Below are positions 3,640 through 59,891 of a stretch of DNA of 64,000 bases, in pieces (the first letter of the stretch is position 1; each line of letters starts with the position of its first letter). The notes beneath the pieces were generated by a model that searched no databases, was not told where the DNA came from, and was given only the letters and a program-made list of their open reading frames with translations. Made by a program: the position numbers and the translations under genes. Source of the stretch: Rhynchobatus australiae (lineage: Eukaryota); the NCBI GenBank assembly GCA_034780895.1, contig JAUZTB010000001.1, forward strand, positions 92,416,100 through 92,480,099, given 5' to 3'.

Positions 3640-4527
3640 ACTCTCAGATGGCGATGAGTAGGCTTACAGGGGTGAGATAGTTTGGTTGGTTGAGTGGTGT
3701 TGCAACAAGAACTTCGGCAAGACCAAGGATTGTGGACTTCAGGAAAGGGAAGTCAGGAGAACACACACCAGTCTTCATTGAGGGGTCAGCGGTGGAAAGG
3801 GTGAGCAACTCAAGTTCCTGGGAAACAACATCTCAGAGGATCCATCCTGGGCCCAACACATTGATGTAATCACAAAGAAGGCATTACTTTATTAGGAGTT
3901 TGAGGAGATTTGGCATATCACCAAAAGCTCTTACAAATTTCTATAGATGTACAGTGGAGAGCATTCTGACTGGTTGCATCACTGCCTGGTATGGAGGCTC
4001 CAATGTNNNNNNNNNNNNNNNNNNNNNNNNNNNNNNNNNNNNNNNNNNNNNNNNNNNNNNNNNNNNNNNNNNNNNNNNNNNNNNNNNNNNNNNNNNNNNN
4101 NNNNNNCACTGCCTGGTATGGAGGCTCCAATGCACAGGATCACAAGAGGCTGCAGAGGGTTGTAGACTCAGCCAGCTCCATCATTGGCACAACCCTCCCT
4201 GCCATCAAGAACATCTTCAAATGATGGTGCCTCAAGAAGGCAGCGCCCAATATTAAGGACCCTCACTATCTGGAACATGCTCTTTTCACATTAGTACCAT
4301 CAGGGAGGAGGTACAGGAGCCTGAAGACCCACACTTAATGAGTTAGGAACAGCTTCTTCCCCTCCACTGTCAGATTTCTGACTGATCCACGAATACTACC
4401 ACATTATTCCTTTTTTTCACACTATTTATTTTTGTATTTTGTAGACTATGTCTCTGCACTGTGCTGCTGCGGCAAAACAACAAATTTCACATCTTATGTC
4501 AGTGATGATAAATCAGATTCTGATTCT
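3640..4527 (+). mobile_element. Rex1/Babar-type non-LTR retrotransposon, 5'-truncated and decayed
   Basis: Remnant KTK..VDFRK; ORF ...LTNFYRCTVESILTGCITAWYGGSNAQDHKRLQRVV... typical of the Rex1 RT C-terminal region; 3' end gataaatcagattctgattct. Confidence 0.85.
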
Positions 4528-43729: not shown

Positions 43730-44010
43730 CATTTATACTGAACTTTTAAAAACATAATTCACAACAAATAAACTAACTTTGGAGGGAATGCATTGTTGTA
43801 ATTTGGACAAATACAGCAATCAACGATGGGATGAGATAAATGGGAATGGTCCTGCTTCCGAAAAAAACGTTCCCATGATATAGGGAGGACTCCCCTACTT
43901 CTCTTCATGTATTGCGATGGAGTTTGCTACATTATTGAAACAGGCAGCTTGGGCTCAGGTCTCACATCTCACCCAAAAGAAAAGAGTAGCATTCCCTCAG
44001 TACTGTATTT
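43730..44010 (-). mobile_element. DeuSINE remnant
   Basis: ggactcccctacttctcttc...ctcaggtctcacatctcacccaaaaga...gtagcattccctcagtactg resembles the reverse complement of the Deu domain. Confidence 0.5.
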
Positions 44011-44109
44011 CACTGAGAAAATAACAACACGTCCTCACATAACATCTTATAATGATGGGTTTGGGATTTCTGATACTAGTTGTCAAGGCACCGGGTTGAG
44101 AGTGATGTG

Positions 44110-44198
44110 CCAGTGATGCTGCTGCAAGTAAGTTTTTCACTGCACCTGTACAATACATGTACTTGTGCATAAGAAAATAAACTTCACTTTGACTTTGA
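44110..44198 (+). mobile_element. Rex1/Babar-like 3' tail
   Basis: gatgctgctgcaagtaagtttttcactgcac...aataaacttcactttgactttga (short-repeat tail after AATAAA). Confidence 0.55.
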
Positions 44199-45267
44199 TG
44201 TAGTCCTGGATGCTCCCAGATTTAAGCCCATTCCACTTTGCCAGCTAATCTCAATCATGGAAGCTAGAGAGCTCCTACAGATGGCCACCATGCACCCAGT
44301 TTGGAGAAGAGTAATCTCCTTTCAGTTCCTACAATGCAATCCTTCCCGCTTCCTGTCTACCAGATGAGGACAAGATTAAACTCAGCTGTGATACTCACCA
44401 CTAACTAATCAACTGTGACATTCACCATTACAGCCTGCACATGATTAGCTACTTGAGAAAGTGCCAAGTTACCAATACCTTTTGAACAATAATTAACATC
44501 TGCAGGAAAATTAGCAGAAAATGTATCCTAAATGGTCAATGATCAGTTTGTCTCTGAAAATCAGAAATCTCAATCTTAGCACCATCGAAAAATCCCCAGT
44601 GTCCTCTAAACCACTGATATTTTTTTTCAGTAATTTGAACATTTATCTGAGACAAGGTAGAATTTGCTTGAGGGGAAGTTATTTCAAACAGTATTTCATT
44701 TTAAACTCTATTTTTGTCTGTAGTTACAAGTGCGATCTGTTTTCACATTCTCAACATCTTCAGCATTCTATAATTAACAGTATCCATCCAGTTAGATGTC
44801 ACTCTCCAAAACCTATCAGCAGTCATCCTTTACTGTCTATACAGTGCTTCTTTGAGGTGAATCATGTACAGAATAAATACAAATGCAAGTGCAAGATCTT
44901 ACCATGTGGTTTACTAGGCATATGCGGCACCCACGAAGCACTGTGCAGGTCTGGAAAGCCCCAGTTTCGATCCCCTACTTGTGCTGAGTTAACTGATCTC
45001 AGAGATGACTCTGCAGTCAGGCTCAGCATCACTGGATTGGTGGGTGGAGGCGGAAAAAAGGAAAAGGGAAAAACCTGGAATTCTGTCTCGGTCTGATGTT
45101 TGCCCAGGTTTGAAACACAGAAGGCAGCCAGCATCTCTGGAGCCGCATCACAAATCACAATGTTCTGGAGAGGGGAGATAACTTTGGGGGGTGGGGGGGG
45201 GAGTACAACTGTACTTAAAGATGAGGAAAAGAACTGCCCACTATTTTACAGTCAAAGTGACAAAGTT

Positions 45268-45592
45268 GTACAGCACAGAAATAGTCATGACGGCCCACCA
45301 AATCCATGCTGACCTAAACACCTATTTACACTACTCCCATTTTATTTCTCCCCACATTCCCATCAGCTCTGGGAATTTTTTAAATCACTCACCAATGCAC
45401 CAGTCACAATTTACAGTACACGATTAACCTACCAACCTGAACATCTTTGGAACATAGGTGGTTATCAGAGCACCCAGAAGAAAGCCACATGGTCACAGGC
45501 GCAATCTCCACATGGACGGCCTCAGAAGTCAGGATTGAACCCAGATGGCAGGAGCTGAGAGGCAGCAGCTCTACTTGCGGCACCACTGTACC
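45268..45592 (-). mobile_element. Full-length V-SINE (HE1-like)
   Basis: caatttacagt...attaacctaccaacct...gagcacccagaagaaagccac...aggattgaacccag...gctgagaggcagcagctctact...caccactgtacc. Confidence 0.8.
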
Positions 45593-48184
45593 AGCCTTAG
45601 CTCCCTCACACTGCAAGTGATGCAAGCTTTGCTGGACTGAAAACCTTGCACTTGTTAGCAACAACTTTCAGATGATCAAAGAGACTGTAGTGCAGAAGCA
45701 ACCCTTTGAAATGCTGAAGTGCCCTTCCACTGACAAACGTAGAAAAACTGAAAAGGCTATGCAGTGCTGTTGCTAATGCCATTTCCTGGCACAAATTTAC
45801 AAGTTGCATCATGATTCGCAAATTGTATTTTCAGCAGCTCAATACTTTCACAATTCTAGGGGAATCCCTTCGCTTTCTAACCTTTTGAGGACAATCAATT
45901 GTACCAAGCCAACAGTTCACAAGGAATCCTGGATGAAAGATTCACTGACCCACATGTTACTGGAATCAAGGATCTCACTCAACCATGGCTGCACAATTGA
46001 GGGGGGGGGGGGAAAGATGGGAGGAANNNNNNNNNNNNNNNNNNNNNNNNNNNNNNNNNNNNNNNNNNNNNNNNNNNNNNNNNNNNNNNNNNNNNNNNNN
46101 NNNNNNNNNNNNNNNNNNNNNNNNNNTAAAGCTTGGTGTATAGCATTAACAATTTAAGTCTTTATGCGGAACTGGGATAAAACTTCAAAGCCATTCAGTC
46201 TTGTGATCTTCATTTCTCCCCCCCCCCCCCCCCCAAAAAGCTCTCGCACGCACATCAATAACTGGCACAAATTATATGATAGTATATTTATACTTCTAGA
46301 AGTTGCAATCTCCTGCATTTAAAACTGTATTTTTATTGTTTTTGCTGATATCAGGCAAGTTGACTTTAAGAGTGTTATGGTGTTAAGTTTAGCTTTTATA
46401 AGGGCTAGGAAGGAAGGGGACAGTTGGTCACAGGTCATCTGTTATCCAATGACTTCATCTGGAAAATGAGCATGTGGATGTAGGGTGACATAAGGGTAGA
46501 TTTGTTTATGTTGTTCCCTTTGTTTTGCTGGGCTTCTGATAATCTTGGTGTCATTATTTATTAGCCATCAGGTAATAATGAAGCTTCGCTGTGTTTGGAG
46601 CATTAGCCTTTGGGGAAATCAGAAAAGAGAGGAAGAAATTTTAAAGCATAAGACAATTTTTTTTCAAAATATAGACACTTGGGCTGTGTAGCTATGAGGT
46701 TTTACTGTGTTACTACATTATGTATATTGTATTTTTATTAGTTTTAATTTAAAAAGAATTGCATGTGCATAATATCAGCATACTTTACAGTTAAAAGCTG
46801 CTTTGAAAGGATGTTGAGGCAAACTGTTTTAAATATCTTTTTTATGGATACAGTTTGTATTCTCAGTGGCCACTATCGGTATTTGTATTAAACTTATAAT
46901 GATCAGTGCATAATTTTTCATCACATGCCCACTCCACCTGGGTCCAATGTAGTTGGTGCTGACAAAAGGTTTGCTTTTACAAAAGAAATGCTGGGATTTC
47001 ATGAGGTTGTGATTAATGGAGAAATATTTCAGTATGTATTAATGTTGTATTTCTGAAAAAGCAAGGAGTTACCAAGATGTAAATTGACAAAATTTTCTTC
47101 TACAGTAGAAAACTAGTAGAACAGCTACTATAAATTCATCTTTTTTTTTGTTTTGATTCCCTCTGTATCCCTGTTTTTGTCACCCATTAATTCTACGCAG
47201 ACAGTCGACACTAGTACATAGCTGGTGAATTTTCTTTTACTGTGTATCATGAAGTCTCTGAAAATGATTTGGATACAAATTAATTTTTTCCCTTATTTGT
47301 TGAAACAAGTAGCCCTTTTAGTGAAGTCTGTGGTCCCTTATTAGAGTAGCAGAAATAGGCAACTAACAATATAGAGAATTGTGGGACAAATTCGTGATCT
47401 TTTTCTATCTGCAGTTATTCACCCCAAACTATCAAGTGCTCCAGTTTCATATTATGGGATTTGTCCATGTCAAACTTAAATTCTTGCACGTGTCTGCTAC
47501 TATGGAAGAGTGCCATTAATGAACTAATTAATGGAATAATGTTTAAACAGACCTTTACCTTAAGAGAAATGTGATCATAAAGAAATAGTTACAGAAATTC
47601 AAGCTAATTCTAGGTTTGTTTGGATTTGTAAAATGTAGTCCTTGAAAGGTGGCCTTGAACAAAGTTCTCTTCACTTTCTCACATGTGAATTGAATCATAT
47701 CAGTGGAAATAACTCCAACAATAACCTCCACCTCCCCCCCCCACCCCCATAGCACCAAACATGTAACTTTTCTATATTACTGACCATAATTTGGCATTTA
47801 CAGTCAGTATAAGGTTCTAGTTTTGTGGTTGTTCCTGTATTAATGAAGTAGTACAAAGTTCTTGATGGCGTAGTTGCTGTATTGTAGTGTCTTGTGTGTA
47901 AGTTAAATGGATTTATTCTGGGGAAGCAGTATAGAACCTACCATTGATTACTGTATCCCTGGATTAGAGAGGCAAAACATTCTTACTCTGGAATTGGCAG
48001 AGACCCGTACTGGAAAGTATTTGGTTATAGACATTGGCTGCTCACAGAATCAAGCTTAGACCTAATGCCTCTCAGGATCAAAAAGCCTATCGATACTCAC
48101 ACAAAGAAGAAATGTCACTTGGATGAGAAAGTGGAACTGTATTATGGCAAATGGTATTATTACAAAAATAAATAAATTTATAGA

Positions 48185-48268
48185 TTTTTATGTCATTGCA
48201 CTGTACTGCTGCAGCAAAACAACACATTTTGCATCATACGTCAGTGATGATAAATCTGATTCTAATTC
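48185..48268 (+). mobile_element. Rex1/Babar 3' tail
   Basis: gcactgtactgctgcagcaaaacaac...gtcagtgatgataaatctgattct, nearly the same as 4455-4527. Confidence 0.75.
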
Positions 48269-48497
48269 AAATAGAGAAGGTTAGAAGGGTGGGCAGGGAA
48301 GCAAGAGAGGGAAATGACTTATTTTCAAAAACCTGAACTGAGTCTATAAATTAAAGCAGTTTCATTCCTGCTAAATAAGTAAGTTGTTTTTTTTGAGAAC
48401 TTCTAGTTAAAAATGTTGACTTCTGGCTGAATTACTAATTGCAATGAGTAGTTCCCTGACAGTAATGGTTGTCATTGCTTAATTTCATAATTAAGTT

Positions 48498-48783
48498 AGG
48501 GGTGGCACGGAGGTTAGTACTATCCCATTGACCTGGGCACAATTGTGACCTTGGGTGCTGAGTGTGTGGATTTTGCATGCTATGCTTGGGTTTCCCCTGG
48601 GTGCTCCAATTTCTTCTCAGATCTGGTTGGTTAATTGAGTACTGCAAATTTGCCCTTGTGCAAGTGGATGGCAGGAGAATTGGCTAGTGTAGGGAGAAGA
48701 GGAAGAAAAATGGGGTTAGCATTGATTGGTGCTTGATAGTTGGCATGGGCATGGTGGGCCAGAAGGCCTTTTTCTGTGACTCA
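48498..48783 (+). mobile_element. V-SINE (HE1-like), decayed
   Basis: ggggtggcacgg head; tgtgtggattttgcatg; gggtttcccctgggtgctcc; gggcatggtgggccagaaggcct tail. Confidence 0.7.
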
Positions 48784-50146
48784 ATATTTTGGAAAAGGTG
48801 TGCTATATTATTTGGGTACCTGTGCCCAAAACAATCAGCTGTTGGGAAATGGATCAATTTTTCAATGAATGTAAAAAGTTGGGTAGGCAAGTTTGGATCT
48901 TTTATAGCAATGAGTATGGCTATTAATAGATGAGGGAATTATTAAAATGGAACAGAGGTGATAGTTTTAAAGTACAATTCCTATACATTTTCTTAAAAAT
49001 GCAGTAAACATTTGACAGCAGTGTCCAGTGATACAATCTCTTTAGTTTCTGAATATGCTTGTGTTTCAATTTCATGAATTACAAACGTGAAACACCTGTA
49101 GAAATGTATTTTGTAATTAAGCCAAAGATTTTTAAAAGTACTTTTCTCAGTTGGTTTATATTTAAATGTACATATCTTTTTAAAAAAAAACTTGCTGAAG
49201 ATTTTGGGTTTCTGCAATTCCTATCACATCTTTTGAATTAATTTCCTTTTGAAACCACTTTATTCAATACAGGTAATTTATTTATTGGCCATTTCATTAG
49301 GAAGCAGGCTTGGCAAAATAGCAAACTTAGCTGTTGATTTTTTTTTTGTAATGAGCATATTGTTTGAGAACAAATACTTGGAGTTGGTAGTTAAACGTGG
49401 GTTCAAATTGCTAACTTCCTGCAATGCCAATTTTTATCTTAGCCGGGTTGGTTGGTGGGGTTTGGGGAGGTCCTAAAACCATAGAAAATTTAAGATTCAG
49501 AAGAAGGCCATTCAGCCCATTTGTCCATGCCAAGTGGTGTGGAGTTGATCAACTTGTTGCTATGTCTGTCTTAATGACCAGCTGCTAAGCTGTACTCCAG
49601 GTATAATGGGCATGGCACATCAGCATTCAATTTATCAGAAATCCTACAAAGCTGACAAAAACTAAATATTTTAAGCCAGTCATATTAGTATAGCAGGTGT
49701 TCCTCCTGCCATATTTGAATTTGGAAGGATAGGTCTTTGATTCTGCCTGATTTATTTTGGCCCTGTTCTTTGGAATTGCATATAAAGCTAAAGTAGGGCA
49801 CTTGGTCACCAGGAAGAGGAGATCAGAAGCTGTGTCATCTCAAGTAGTTGTGCATCTTCTAAAGGCCACCTGTGGAGTGGCTGTGGTTATGACCCTTGAT
49901 TTAGTTATCTTTGGAGTAATAAAGTAATTCAAGATTCAGCTAATTTCACAACAGCCCTAATTATAAATTGAATTTCTATTTTGAAGCTTTTTTCCTTTGC
50001 TGAAAGAGTAATTGACTTAATCAACTTTATTCTACTTCACCATAATCTGTGAAATTGTTGAGAACACTGAGTTGTCAGTGCAGAAAACTAGACTTTTTAA
50101 TTTTTAATGCTTTAGCCTTAACTTCTTTTCCTCCTCATTGCCACAG

Positions 50147-51358
50147 GTCAACGATCTCCAGAAACCTCGAACGGGTGAAAATTACCTTCCCCTGGGACCG
50201 TCTGTAACCCCAAATAGTAGCACCCCTTTTTCTCATGATACTGCTTATTCCAGTTGTCGCCAAGATACACCAAATTCATACAGCCAGTATACCCCGCAGT
50301 CATCCCAAAGCACACCACATACTCCACGGTTGGGAACCCCCTACTCGCAGGATTCCAGCTATTCCAGTCGGCAGAGTACACCAGCTTATTCTTACTCGCA
50401 AGAATCTGGGTACAAGTCTAGAAGACCGGAGTCTAATTATCAAGATTCCTTCAGGAGATTGGGACACCATTACTCACATAACACTGGAACATATAGAGGT
50501 CCTGAGCTTCCAGTTAACACTTACAAGTCAGCTCGCTCAGAGGGTGGATCCTATTCACATAACCCTTCGGTGAGCCAGTCTGGGACAAACTACCATTCAG
50601 CCTTTTCTCCCTACCAAAATGTGCACTCTGCCCAACCGTTGTATTCTCGTACTTTGGATCAACAACATGGTCAGGCATCCAGAGACCATGATTACAGAAG
50701 ACCTGTGCTACCATCTGATGCCTTTGGGCACAATAATGCCAATTTGGACATTGGGCCTGCAAAGGAAAAAGTGGAAGATCCAGTTCCTTTGGAGACCAGC
50801 ATCTCAAATGATCAAACGTCTGCTTCCTTCACCAAATCTCCTGAAAGGGCTGTGACTCCTGAAAGCATAATACCTGAAACAGCTAGTAGTTCAACTCAAC
50901 CAAACAGTTTGGATTCTCGTATTGAGATGCTTTTGAAGGAGCAGCGAACAAAGCTTCCTTTCTTTGACCAAGAATCTGATATCGACATCAAAATGGAGCA
51001 CAGTCCCATATCTTCCTCCTCTTCCCAACTTTCTCCATTACCACTTCCTGGGTCAAACACTCATTTGCTTCAGCGAGGTCCTACTCCATCCTCTCGCCCT
51101 TCCAGTACAGGCCTGGAGGATGTAAGTCCAACTCCTCTTCCAGACTCGGATGATGAGGATCCTATTTTTGAAACTGTTCAACAGAACCAAAGCTCAAGGT
51201 CAGCATCAGAAGCCAGTATGACACCTGTTGATCAGTCCAGTCAGATGAGTAGGTTTTCCACATCTTCGGATAGTAGGACTCCTGCAGTTAAAGCAGAGAG
51301 CTGCGAAACAAATAAAGAAGCTGTGGAACCTGTACCTGCTCCAGATGCCCTGGAAGAA
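50147..51358 (+). CDS. SETD1B: Large internal exon of histone H3K4 methyltransferase SETD1B (404 codons, phase 0-0), orphan in this window
   Basis: Uninterrupted ORF with SETD1B-type motifs SVTPNSSTPFSHDTAYSSCRQDTPNSY, TPRLGTPYSQDSSYSSRQ, SLDSRIEMLLKEQRTKL, SPISSSSSQLSPL and SSRPSSTGLEDVSPTPLPDSD. Acceptor cttcttttcctcctcattgccacag| at 50146; donor GAA|gtaagt at 51359; length 1212 = 3 x 404. Confidence 0.9.
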
Positions 51359-52154
51359 GTAAGTAAACCAATTTGTTGCCTAAGTTTGCTTTGTGTTTTA
51401 GAACAATGTATAGCTTAACAGAGATGGTGTTATGTTGTATAGGATTCCTGATTGTTTTGTGAGGTGTTTTTGAACTTAATCCTAATTTTGTTCTTTATGT
51501 TGATTTATGCCCTAAATGGAACATTTTACAGTAACTATGCTCTATATTATTGAGGATTTTCTGTTTCTCTTGTTTTCTAAATATATTTTATAGTGGCAAC
51601 TGCCTTAGCCAAAGGGAAAAGGATTTGCTAATCCTAGAAATCCTAGTCAAATGTCTTACAGCAGACATTGGCATTGCTTTTCAATGAGTTCAGTCTGTGG
51701 CATAATTTGCCTGGAGTTCTACTAAATTGCTGCCGTTCAGTTTGAAAGTGAGGGGGGGGGGGAAAGATGGGAGGAAGGATCATTGCAAGATAGAAGCCAT
51801 AGCTCTGGAAGAGAAGGCAACAAAAGGAACGAGTGAACTGACCAAAGAGGAAATATTAATTTGACATTTTACCTTCGCACTTTTACAGCATCTGAGCCCA
51901 CCTCCAGATATGCCAGTGTGAGTGACAAGATGAGAAAGGAGAAGATCAAGCCCCACTGATTAATTCGATGAACGTTTGTCCAAGACAGCTACCATCAAAG
52001 ACTTAGATCTCCACCCATCATCTTTGCATACATGGGTAATATCTCCCACTATCCATGCAAGAAAGCACCATTCTAAACTCAGGCACAGCAGCAGGTAACT
52101 GCTCAGCAAATAAAATTGTTACTGATCCAAGGCCTGTTATTCAGTCTGTGCTCA

Positions 52155-52720
52155 ACAACAACTAGTATTTATGTAGTACCTCTAATATGATCAAATGTCC
52201 CCAGGGGTAAACCGGGAGGATTACCAAACAAAAAGTCAACAAAATATGACACTGAGCAACAGAGGATAGATGATAACTTAGTCAAAGGGCATACTTGACT
52301 AATTTAAGGAGAACCTTCAAGAAGAAGGCAAAGAGATTTATGGAGGAAACTTCACAACCAACAGTGGTGGATCAATTAGAATCAGGACTGCACAGGAGGC
52401 AAGAGCTACAAGAATGCACAGATATGGAAGGCTGATAGGGCTGAGGGAAGTGGAGATGGGGGGGGGGGGGGGAAGGCCACTGGGAAATGAGAAAACTAGG
52501 TCAAGTATCAGAGAAAAAGCCAGGGTGGCCCAACATGCACAGGTGTAATGGCTGAACAAGACCCGAGACAAATTAAGATGCGGAGAGCAAAGTTTTGGGT
52601 GAGCTCAAATTCATGTGGGGTGGGAGATAATTGACCAATGGAAATAAATTGAGTCCAGAGGTAACAAAAAAATGGATTGGGAATGGTGGCCAGAAAACCG
52701 TTCATGGAGGGAACCAAAGG
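52155..52720 (-). mobile_element. L2 LINE 3' remnant
   Basis: caactagtatttatgtagtacctct (antisense of an L2/DeuSINE-type tail); gagtccagaggtaacaaaaaatggat is antisense to an IH.FVTSGL-like motif. Confidence 0.5.
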
Positions 52721-53079
52721 CAAAGGAAACAGTCCTCACCAGGTTTAGCTCTGGGTGATTTCTGGTCATCCAACATCACACGTCAGATAAACAAATTGGA
52801 GTAGTTCAGGGAGGTGTTTGTGAGATAAAAGTGAATGTCATTATCCTATTTGTTATGTTGAATACATTCTTGTGAGAAAAAAAAATCATTGAACAAAATG
52901 CTTTCATAACATGTTCGTCCCTGTAGATTGCAGAAAGAATCTCATCATGAGTTGTAAAGGTGTGCAGCAAGTGTTTTCCTAATACACTGTATAACATCTG
53001 CATTTAATAAAGACACTGATTTTCTATAGCCAGTAACTGAAAATAGCTGGTTTCTCCCACTCAGTGCAAGATACACAAG

Positions 53080-53372
53080 ACAGAGTGGTACAGCACAGAA
53101 ACAGGCCCTTTGGCCCACCATGTCCATGCTGACCTTTTTGCCCACCTACACTAATCTTATTTGCCCACATTAGGTCCACATGCTTCTACGTCTCGCCGAT
53201 TTAAGGGTCGGTTGAAATGTTTCTTAAATGTAGCGGCTGCATCTGAATCCATCATCTCCACCGGCAGCAAATTCCAGATATCCTCCATTCTCTGTGTAAA
53301 AATCTTTCCCCTCAAATACTATTTTCAACTCCTTCCTCTCACCTTCAACCTATGCCCTCTTGTTTTTGATAC
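53080..53372 (-). mobile_element. CR1 LINE 3' end
   Basis: cagcacagaaacaggccctttggcccacc...ggcagcaaattccagata...cctctcaccttcaacctatgccctct. Confidence 0.8.
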
Positions 53373-54279
53373 TGTATCCCTACTATTGGGGTATCAAAAT
53401 TCTGCTCGAGACAAAGCTGTGACTGCTCATGCTGTGTGTTCCTTCTAGATTATTACACTGCAGATGATCCTGTGTTTTGTAAAGTAATAAAGCTATATTT
53501 TATAAAACTGCAATAAAGCTGTTAGCATTTGATATCTGAAGTGTGTGGGAGGAGGAGGGGGAGGGAAGAGAGGTCCATTCTGTGATACCACATACAATTT
53601 CAGAAGAAGCAAATCAAAAGGAGAGAGCTCAAGAATTGCAAAAAACATCACAAGTGTGCAAACACAGATTTAGTTATATGATTCAACACTCCTGCTTTCA
53701 CACTTTGCACTGAACAGTACATTAAAAAAACATAGGAAGACTCTCAGATTTAACTGTTTCCAGAAAGGCAAAAAGGGGTGGAGGAGAGTGGGTGTCAAAT
53801 CATTTCTGTAAAGATGACAGATCAAAGGATAATACTGGGTCAACGAACCATGAAATCAGCAACAAAAAAGAAATCCAAAGCAGACAATCAGAAAATAACT
53901 ACCAAAGTCAATGTTATATTGAGCCATGACACTCCAAATTTTCAAAACACCCCTCATCACACCAGTAGTTTCATTCATGTAAACAACACACACAAGTTCC
54001 TGATCAGTGCAACTCATAAAATCAACATAACTCAAATGAATAAAGCTAAGGAGGGATTTTACATAAATGGACAAGAACAAACCAATATTTCAGGCGTGCT
54101 TAGATCCTAACTAGTTAGGAAACCAAAACTGTTTTTCAAAATCCAAGTGATGGATTTTCTTTTTTCCTTTCCCTCCTGAACACAGATCTGTCTTATCTTT
54201 AACTAATGCTTGAAAGAGAAGGAAACAGAATATTTTCCTAATAGGATCCCAACAGCTTATTCTCAGCAGAGACCTGGTA

Positions 54280-59720: not shown

Positions 59721-59891
59721 GGGAAAGGAAGCAGTAACGTGATGTCAAATGGGTCAATAGCGGAAGCTAAAAACAAACTGCAGCTGCTGAANNNNNNNNN
59801 NNNNNNNNNNNNNNNNNNNNNNNNNNNNNNNNNNNNNNNNNNNNNNNNNNNNNNNNNNNNNNNNNNNNNNNNNNNNNNNNNNNNNNNNNNN

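Follow-up and report, generated by a model that had tools for sequence, protein, structure and literature searches.

There is, in our view, very little doubt that the 5.6-kb block found in an intron of an alpha-actinin gene is the genome's own, single copy of a SETD1B exon with its intron flanks, put there by an assembly error, and that its home is a gap of 5,666 N in the SETD1B locus on another sequence of the assembly, C57. A misjoin is supported by four observations taken together: the block occurs as a single copy, C57 has a hole that fits it in position and length, the first bases of the block overlap one border of that hole, and the actinin intron of relatives lacks the block. The preliminary description, made from the letters of the DNA, is upheld in its view that the block is foreign to the locus.

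Results

The SETD1B exon in the actinin intron

Within the window, by which we mean the whole 64-kb stretch of DNA analyzed, a stop-free exon of 404 codons with good splice sites had been described beforehand and is confirmed at 50147-51358 (+). It is 1,212 nt long, is enclosed in the sole long open frame of the region (50108-51418, +), and is bounded by a CCACAG acceptor and a GTAAGT donor, with phase 0 at either end. Its product shares 61% identity with residues 242-609 of coelacanth SETD1B over 379 aligned positions (E 1e-115), which is the best of 249 protein matches, and the gene-named entries among the 120 matches listed of the 249 are nearly all SETD1B. Vertebrate SETD1B is an H3K4 methyltransferase with RRM, N-SET, and SET domains, and the likeness to it consists of this identity together with the matching neighbor exons on C57 that are described below. 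When full-length SETD1B (1,977 aa) was used as the tblastn query, a single match was obtained in the 64-kb window, in agreement with the earlier statement that no further SETD1B exon is recognizable there, and a single match was likewise obtained in 164 kb of C1, the contig of the host gene. The exon in the window appears to be SETD1B's ordinary exon, misplaced and otherwise biologically unremarkable.

The host gene has its first coding exon on the opposite strand of the window (Table 1), and its exon 2 is found ~24 kb to the left of the window start, at C1:92,392,105, with the later exons following from there on. The SETD1B block therefore sits in actinin intron 1, which is ~80 kb long, and the antisense placement within that intron given in the preliminary description holds, with alpha-actinin exon 1 on the minus strand and the SETD1B exon on the plus strand.

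Structure and borders of the block

Table 1. Features of the block, its junctions, and the host gene, in window coordinates
Feature	Position	Strand	Remarks
Left actinin-intron contig end; repeat copy 1, 25 nt (G-run + 14 nt)	46002-46026	+	likely a duplicated contig end
100-N gap at left junction	46027-46126	.	
Block start, overlapping C57 where its 5,666-N gap begins in gene sense	46127-46178	+	96% over 52 nt
Part of SETD1B intron upstream of exon	46127-50146	+	GC 0.36, T-rich on sense strand, as SETD1B introns on C57
SETD1B coding exon (large; 404 codons; phase 0 at both ends)	50147-51358	+	coelacanth residues 242-609
Start of SETD1B intron downstream of exon	51359-51751	+	ends in TGA + G-run
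TGA + G-run, likely the misjoin point	51749-51762	+	also at actinin-side junction, 45998-46012
Repeat copy 2, 25 nt; right actinin-intron contig begins	51752-51776	+	
First coding exon of host alpha-actinin gene	56591-56487	-	matches alpha-actinins

A retrocopy was rejected, as the preliminary description had already held, because intron is retained around the single SETD1B exon (about 4.0 kb and 0.4 kb) and adjacent exons are unjoined. A perfect direct repeat of 25 nt flanks the block, both copies of which open with a G-run that is directly preceded by TGA, and the right-hand junction is without an N gap. In their base composition, the introns of the block (GC 0.36/0.34, AT skew -0.08/-0.21) resemble the SETD1B introns on C57 (GC 0.35/0.38, AT skew -0.11/-0.10) and differ from the actinin flanks (GC 0.41, AT skew +0.12/+0.14). 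Neither transposon ends nor terminal inverted repeats were found at the block borders, no A-tail was found at the block ends, and none of the 25 longest of 51 inverted pairs links the two ends, save for G/C homopolymer runs. A short dispersed repeat lies inside the block, at 48175-48270, and sequences 87-94% alike occur at at least 39 other places.

Copy number of the block

The exon region gave one match in the 2.23-Gb assembly, and a protein search of the assembly found the exon in the window alone. The 5′ part of the block gave one full-length match among 40 scored, the other 39 being short repeat hits of ~95 nt, and a second copy of the SETD1B exon in the assembly was thus not found by the exon, 5′-part, or protein searches. 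A comparison of read depth between block and flanks, which had been suggested in the preliminary description, revealed no excess: in the sequencing run X1, which may be from the source sample, the depth of the contigs listed, a rough gauge of copy number, was 6.2-9.4 in the flanks and, at 5.9-6.8, not doubled within the block.

The SETD1B locus on C57

The remaining SETD1B exons were located by a family search, with a shorter homolog, and by tblastn on the minus strand of C57, at 19.790-19.903 Mb. Residues 1-241, 630-676, 744-889, 948-1014, and 1236-1977 were recovered there by tblastn, residues 242-629 had no tblastn match on C57, and the exon peptide, when compared with 140 kb of that sequence, found no counterpart. 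Residues 677-743, 890-947, and 1015-1235 were likewise unrecovered on C57 by tblastn, which we ascribe to low complexity, divergence, or other gaps. The 140 kb examined contain 43 gaps, and the longest of them, the run of 5,666 N at C57:19,893,293-19,898,958, falls in the intron that separates residue 241 from residue 630, where the exon belongs. The top match of the block against C57 joins window 46127-46178 to C57:19,899,012-19,898,961 (minus), which is the upstream edge of that gap, in gene-sense orientation and with an E value of about 1e-17. The overlap is imperfect, and its 3 differences in 54 nt may be contig-tip errors or allelic differences. Past the 52-nt overlap and up to the G-run the block measures 5,571 nt; the gap is 95 nt longer, and the block does not reach its far edge. 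The neighboring exons on C57, of which the first ends at 19,901,147 and the second starts at 19,857,306, have a phase 0 donor upstream and a phase 0 acceptor downstream, both of which fit the 404-codon exon, and the ends of the exon peptide align with coelacanth SETD1B between these flanking exons (residues 241 and about 630). The tblastn check proposed in the preliminary description accordingly found a true SETD1B locus that is without exactly this exon and has the gap and the edge overlap in its place.

An identity as SETD1A was rejected, because the RRM match is 67% on C18231 versus 80% on C57, which points to a separate paralog on C18231. The small contigs C18231, with this second RRM match, and C193, with a second N-SET match, are probably fragmented pieces of SETD1A. 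Elsewhere in the SETD1B locus, a 40-kb stretch (C57:19,815,432-19,855,651) in which residues 890-947 are unrecovered contains many gaps, so that a second SETD1B exon may be missing or misplaced.

Duplicated ends at 100-N gaps

In 304 kb, the left and right flanks repeat each other by 12-30 nt at 7 of 38 gaps of 100 N, and the other 31 are without a duplicated end of at least 12 nt; such ends are, therefore, a common product of this assembly. If the block is taken out, the two 25-nt copies form just such a duplicated-end pair. The 25-nt repeat was accordingly not accepted as proof of an insertion with target-site duplication, because the same pattern is seen at other 100-N gaps of the assembly. 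The 100-N gap at 59792-59891 shows this pattern with no block inserted: the 17 nt to its left are found again in the right flank, at an offset of 8 nt. An open frame spans a 100-N gap at 3870-4256 (+) and is presumably similar to the terminal part of a LINE reverse transcriptase.

Independent sequencing runs

Four of 17 listed runs (X1-X4) were compared with window 44000-54000. None of the runs recorded as RNA was listed as containing the stretch, and two that may be RNA have 0.05 of its words. X1 is the closest run (0.80 of words), X2 and X4 come from two other organisms and two studies, and X3, with no piece listed at either junction, is too shallow to show them. The actinin intron is continuous without the block in two of the four runs: one contig of 1,296 nt in X2 (contig 10) covers 45346-46010 and 51773-52387 with 17 letters between, and one of 1,005 nt in X4 (contig 25) covers 45470-46012 and 51769-52165 with 22 letters between. 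The upstream intron of the block (46127-50146) is covered by contig 26 of X4 and contig 11 of X2. Contig 26 of X4 covers the 5′ end of the block and extends 1,282 nt past it in sequence that does not align to the actinin side, and contig 27 of the same run tracks the downstream intron as far as 51756, beyond which it has another 1,034 nt, again in sequence that does not align to the actinin side. Because X2 and X4 bear on the ancestral state only, on their own they leave room for a species-specific insertion. The X1 contigs listed break off within the two G-runs (at 46011 and at 51759), and X1 therefore neither backs nor contradicts the junctions of the block; no same-organism contig or read joining 46026 to 51777, or the block to C57, was found among them. 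Contig 6 of X1 (50614-51759, no differences) has at least TGA+G8 after the SETD1B intron, in X1's own contig.

Discussion

How the SETD1B block might have entered the actinin intron during assembly can be pictured as follows. Two actinin-intron contigs would first have shared a 25-nt overlap, with a placeholder gap of 100 N set between them. A gap-filling or contig-extension step might then have walked leftward from the right actinin-intron contig and passed through the G-run into an intron of SETD1B, where TGA and a G-run likewise occur, and about 5.6 kb of SETD1B sequence would subsequently have been copied into the actinin intron. The preliminary description named a scaffolding error as the likeliest cause; assembly error as such stands, but since N are missing from the right-hand junction, a chimeric extension through the G-run is a likelier course than plain scaffolding.

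Gap fillers are described, in the excerpted text of two papers, as inserting wrong-locus sequence where repeats leave the placement of reads ambiguous (PMC8848313; PMC9575681). The present case resembles these errors in that gaps are closed or overfilled from the wrong locus, whereas a slip in a G-run is not specifically described in those excerpts. Among the false gene losses of draft vertebrate assemblies, those with exons split onto other scaffolds are reported as a recognized class (PMC9516821). The losses termed “Fragmented” there share with our case an exon on another scaffold and a gene whose own locus seems to be exon-less; they differ in that their stray piece is on its own scaffold, whereas here it is inside the intron of another gene on a chromosome-scale scaffold. 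The cases in that paper were, moreover, confirmed with long-read assemblies, whereas ours draws on this assembly and on contigs of sequencing runs.

One other possibility, which we regard as highly improbable, is that the SETD1B exon was in fact duplicated into the actinin intron at the DNA level, and recently, and that the assembler merged the two copies, so that the original is hidden in the gap on C57. A species-specific duplication of the 5.6-kb block by microhomology between G-runs, with the original similarly hidden, likewise deserves scant credence. A collapsed repeat would also give one copy and one gap, but a raised depth would then be expected over the block in X1, and the depth there is not raised. 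The perfect 25-nt flanking repeat is readable as a target-site duplication, but similar duplicated ends at 7 of the 38 local 100-N gaps weaken that reading, and the block borders are without transposon ends. The right junction does lack N, as a genuine insertion would allow, but both junctions lie in G-runs and the left one is at an N gap. The differences in the overlap with C57 (3 of 54 nt) could be counted in favor of a duplication as well; a biological event of this kind, however, gives no reason for a block that is about as long as the gap, nor for one that starts at the edge of the gap.

Transposed gene fragments are known from Pack-type or Helitron capture, 3′ transduction, and segmental duplication, and the block is like them in that an exon, together with adjoining intron, sits where it does not belong and has a direct repeat on either side. 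It differs from them in that there is no second copy, depth excess, element end, or poly(A) tail, and in that the hole at the donor locus matches. The alternative offered in the preliminary description, a real DNA-level transposed fragment, is left unsupported by the same lack of a second copy, depth excess, and element ends.

Another possibility, which strikes us as scarcely credible, is a real cut-and-paste event that took the exon out of SETD1B and into the actinin intron, a loss that would be in frame because of the 0-0 phase of the exon. The symmetry of the exon would suit such an event, as would the finding of just one copy in the assembly, but the sized gap of 5,666 N would imply that DNA of that length is still at C57, the first 52 nt of the block are present at both loci, and the exon retains its open frame and intact splice sites.

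With an assembly error as the preferred explanation, the misplaced SETD1B exon almost certainly has no biological significance and is not a real feature. The error matters for annotation, since gene models from this assembly would show SETD1B minus 404 codons yet in frame, owing to the phase of the exon, and such an in-frame absence could pass for a real lineage-specific deletion in SETD1B. When orphan gene pieces are encountered beside 100-N gaps in this assembly, a matching gap elsewhere should be sought before they are read as transposition.

Some minor points concern the host gene. The paralog is presumably ACTN1, a name suggested by its N-terminus; in a synteny check of the actinin paralog, a ZFP36L-type gene was found 7.2 Mb off on the same contig, which favors the name weakly at best. 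Exon 1 seems to use a GC splice donor, AAG/GCAAGT (window 56486-56481, minus strand), judging from the letters at its end; exon 2 starts in phase 0, which fits this donor and not a GT four bases further. Two near-identical actinin exons lie 290 nt apart on the minus strand, at C1:92,333,238 and 92,332,948, and we take them to be a mutually exclusive pair, probably of the exon 8a/8b kind.
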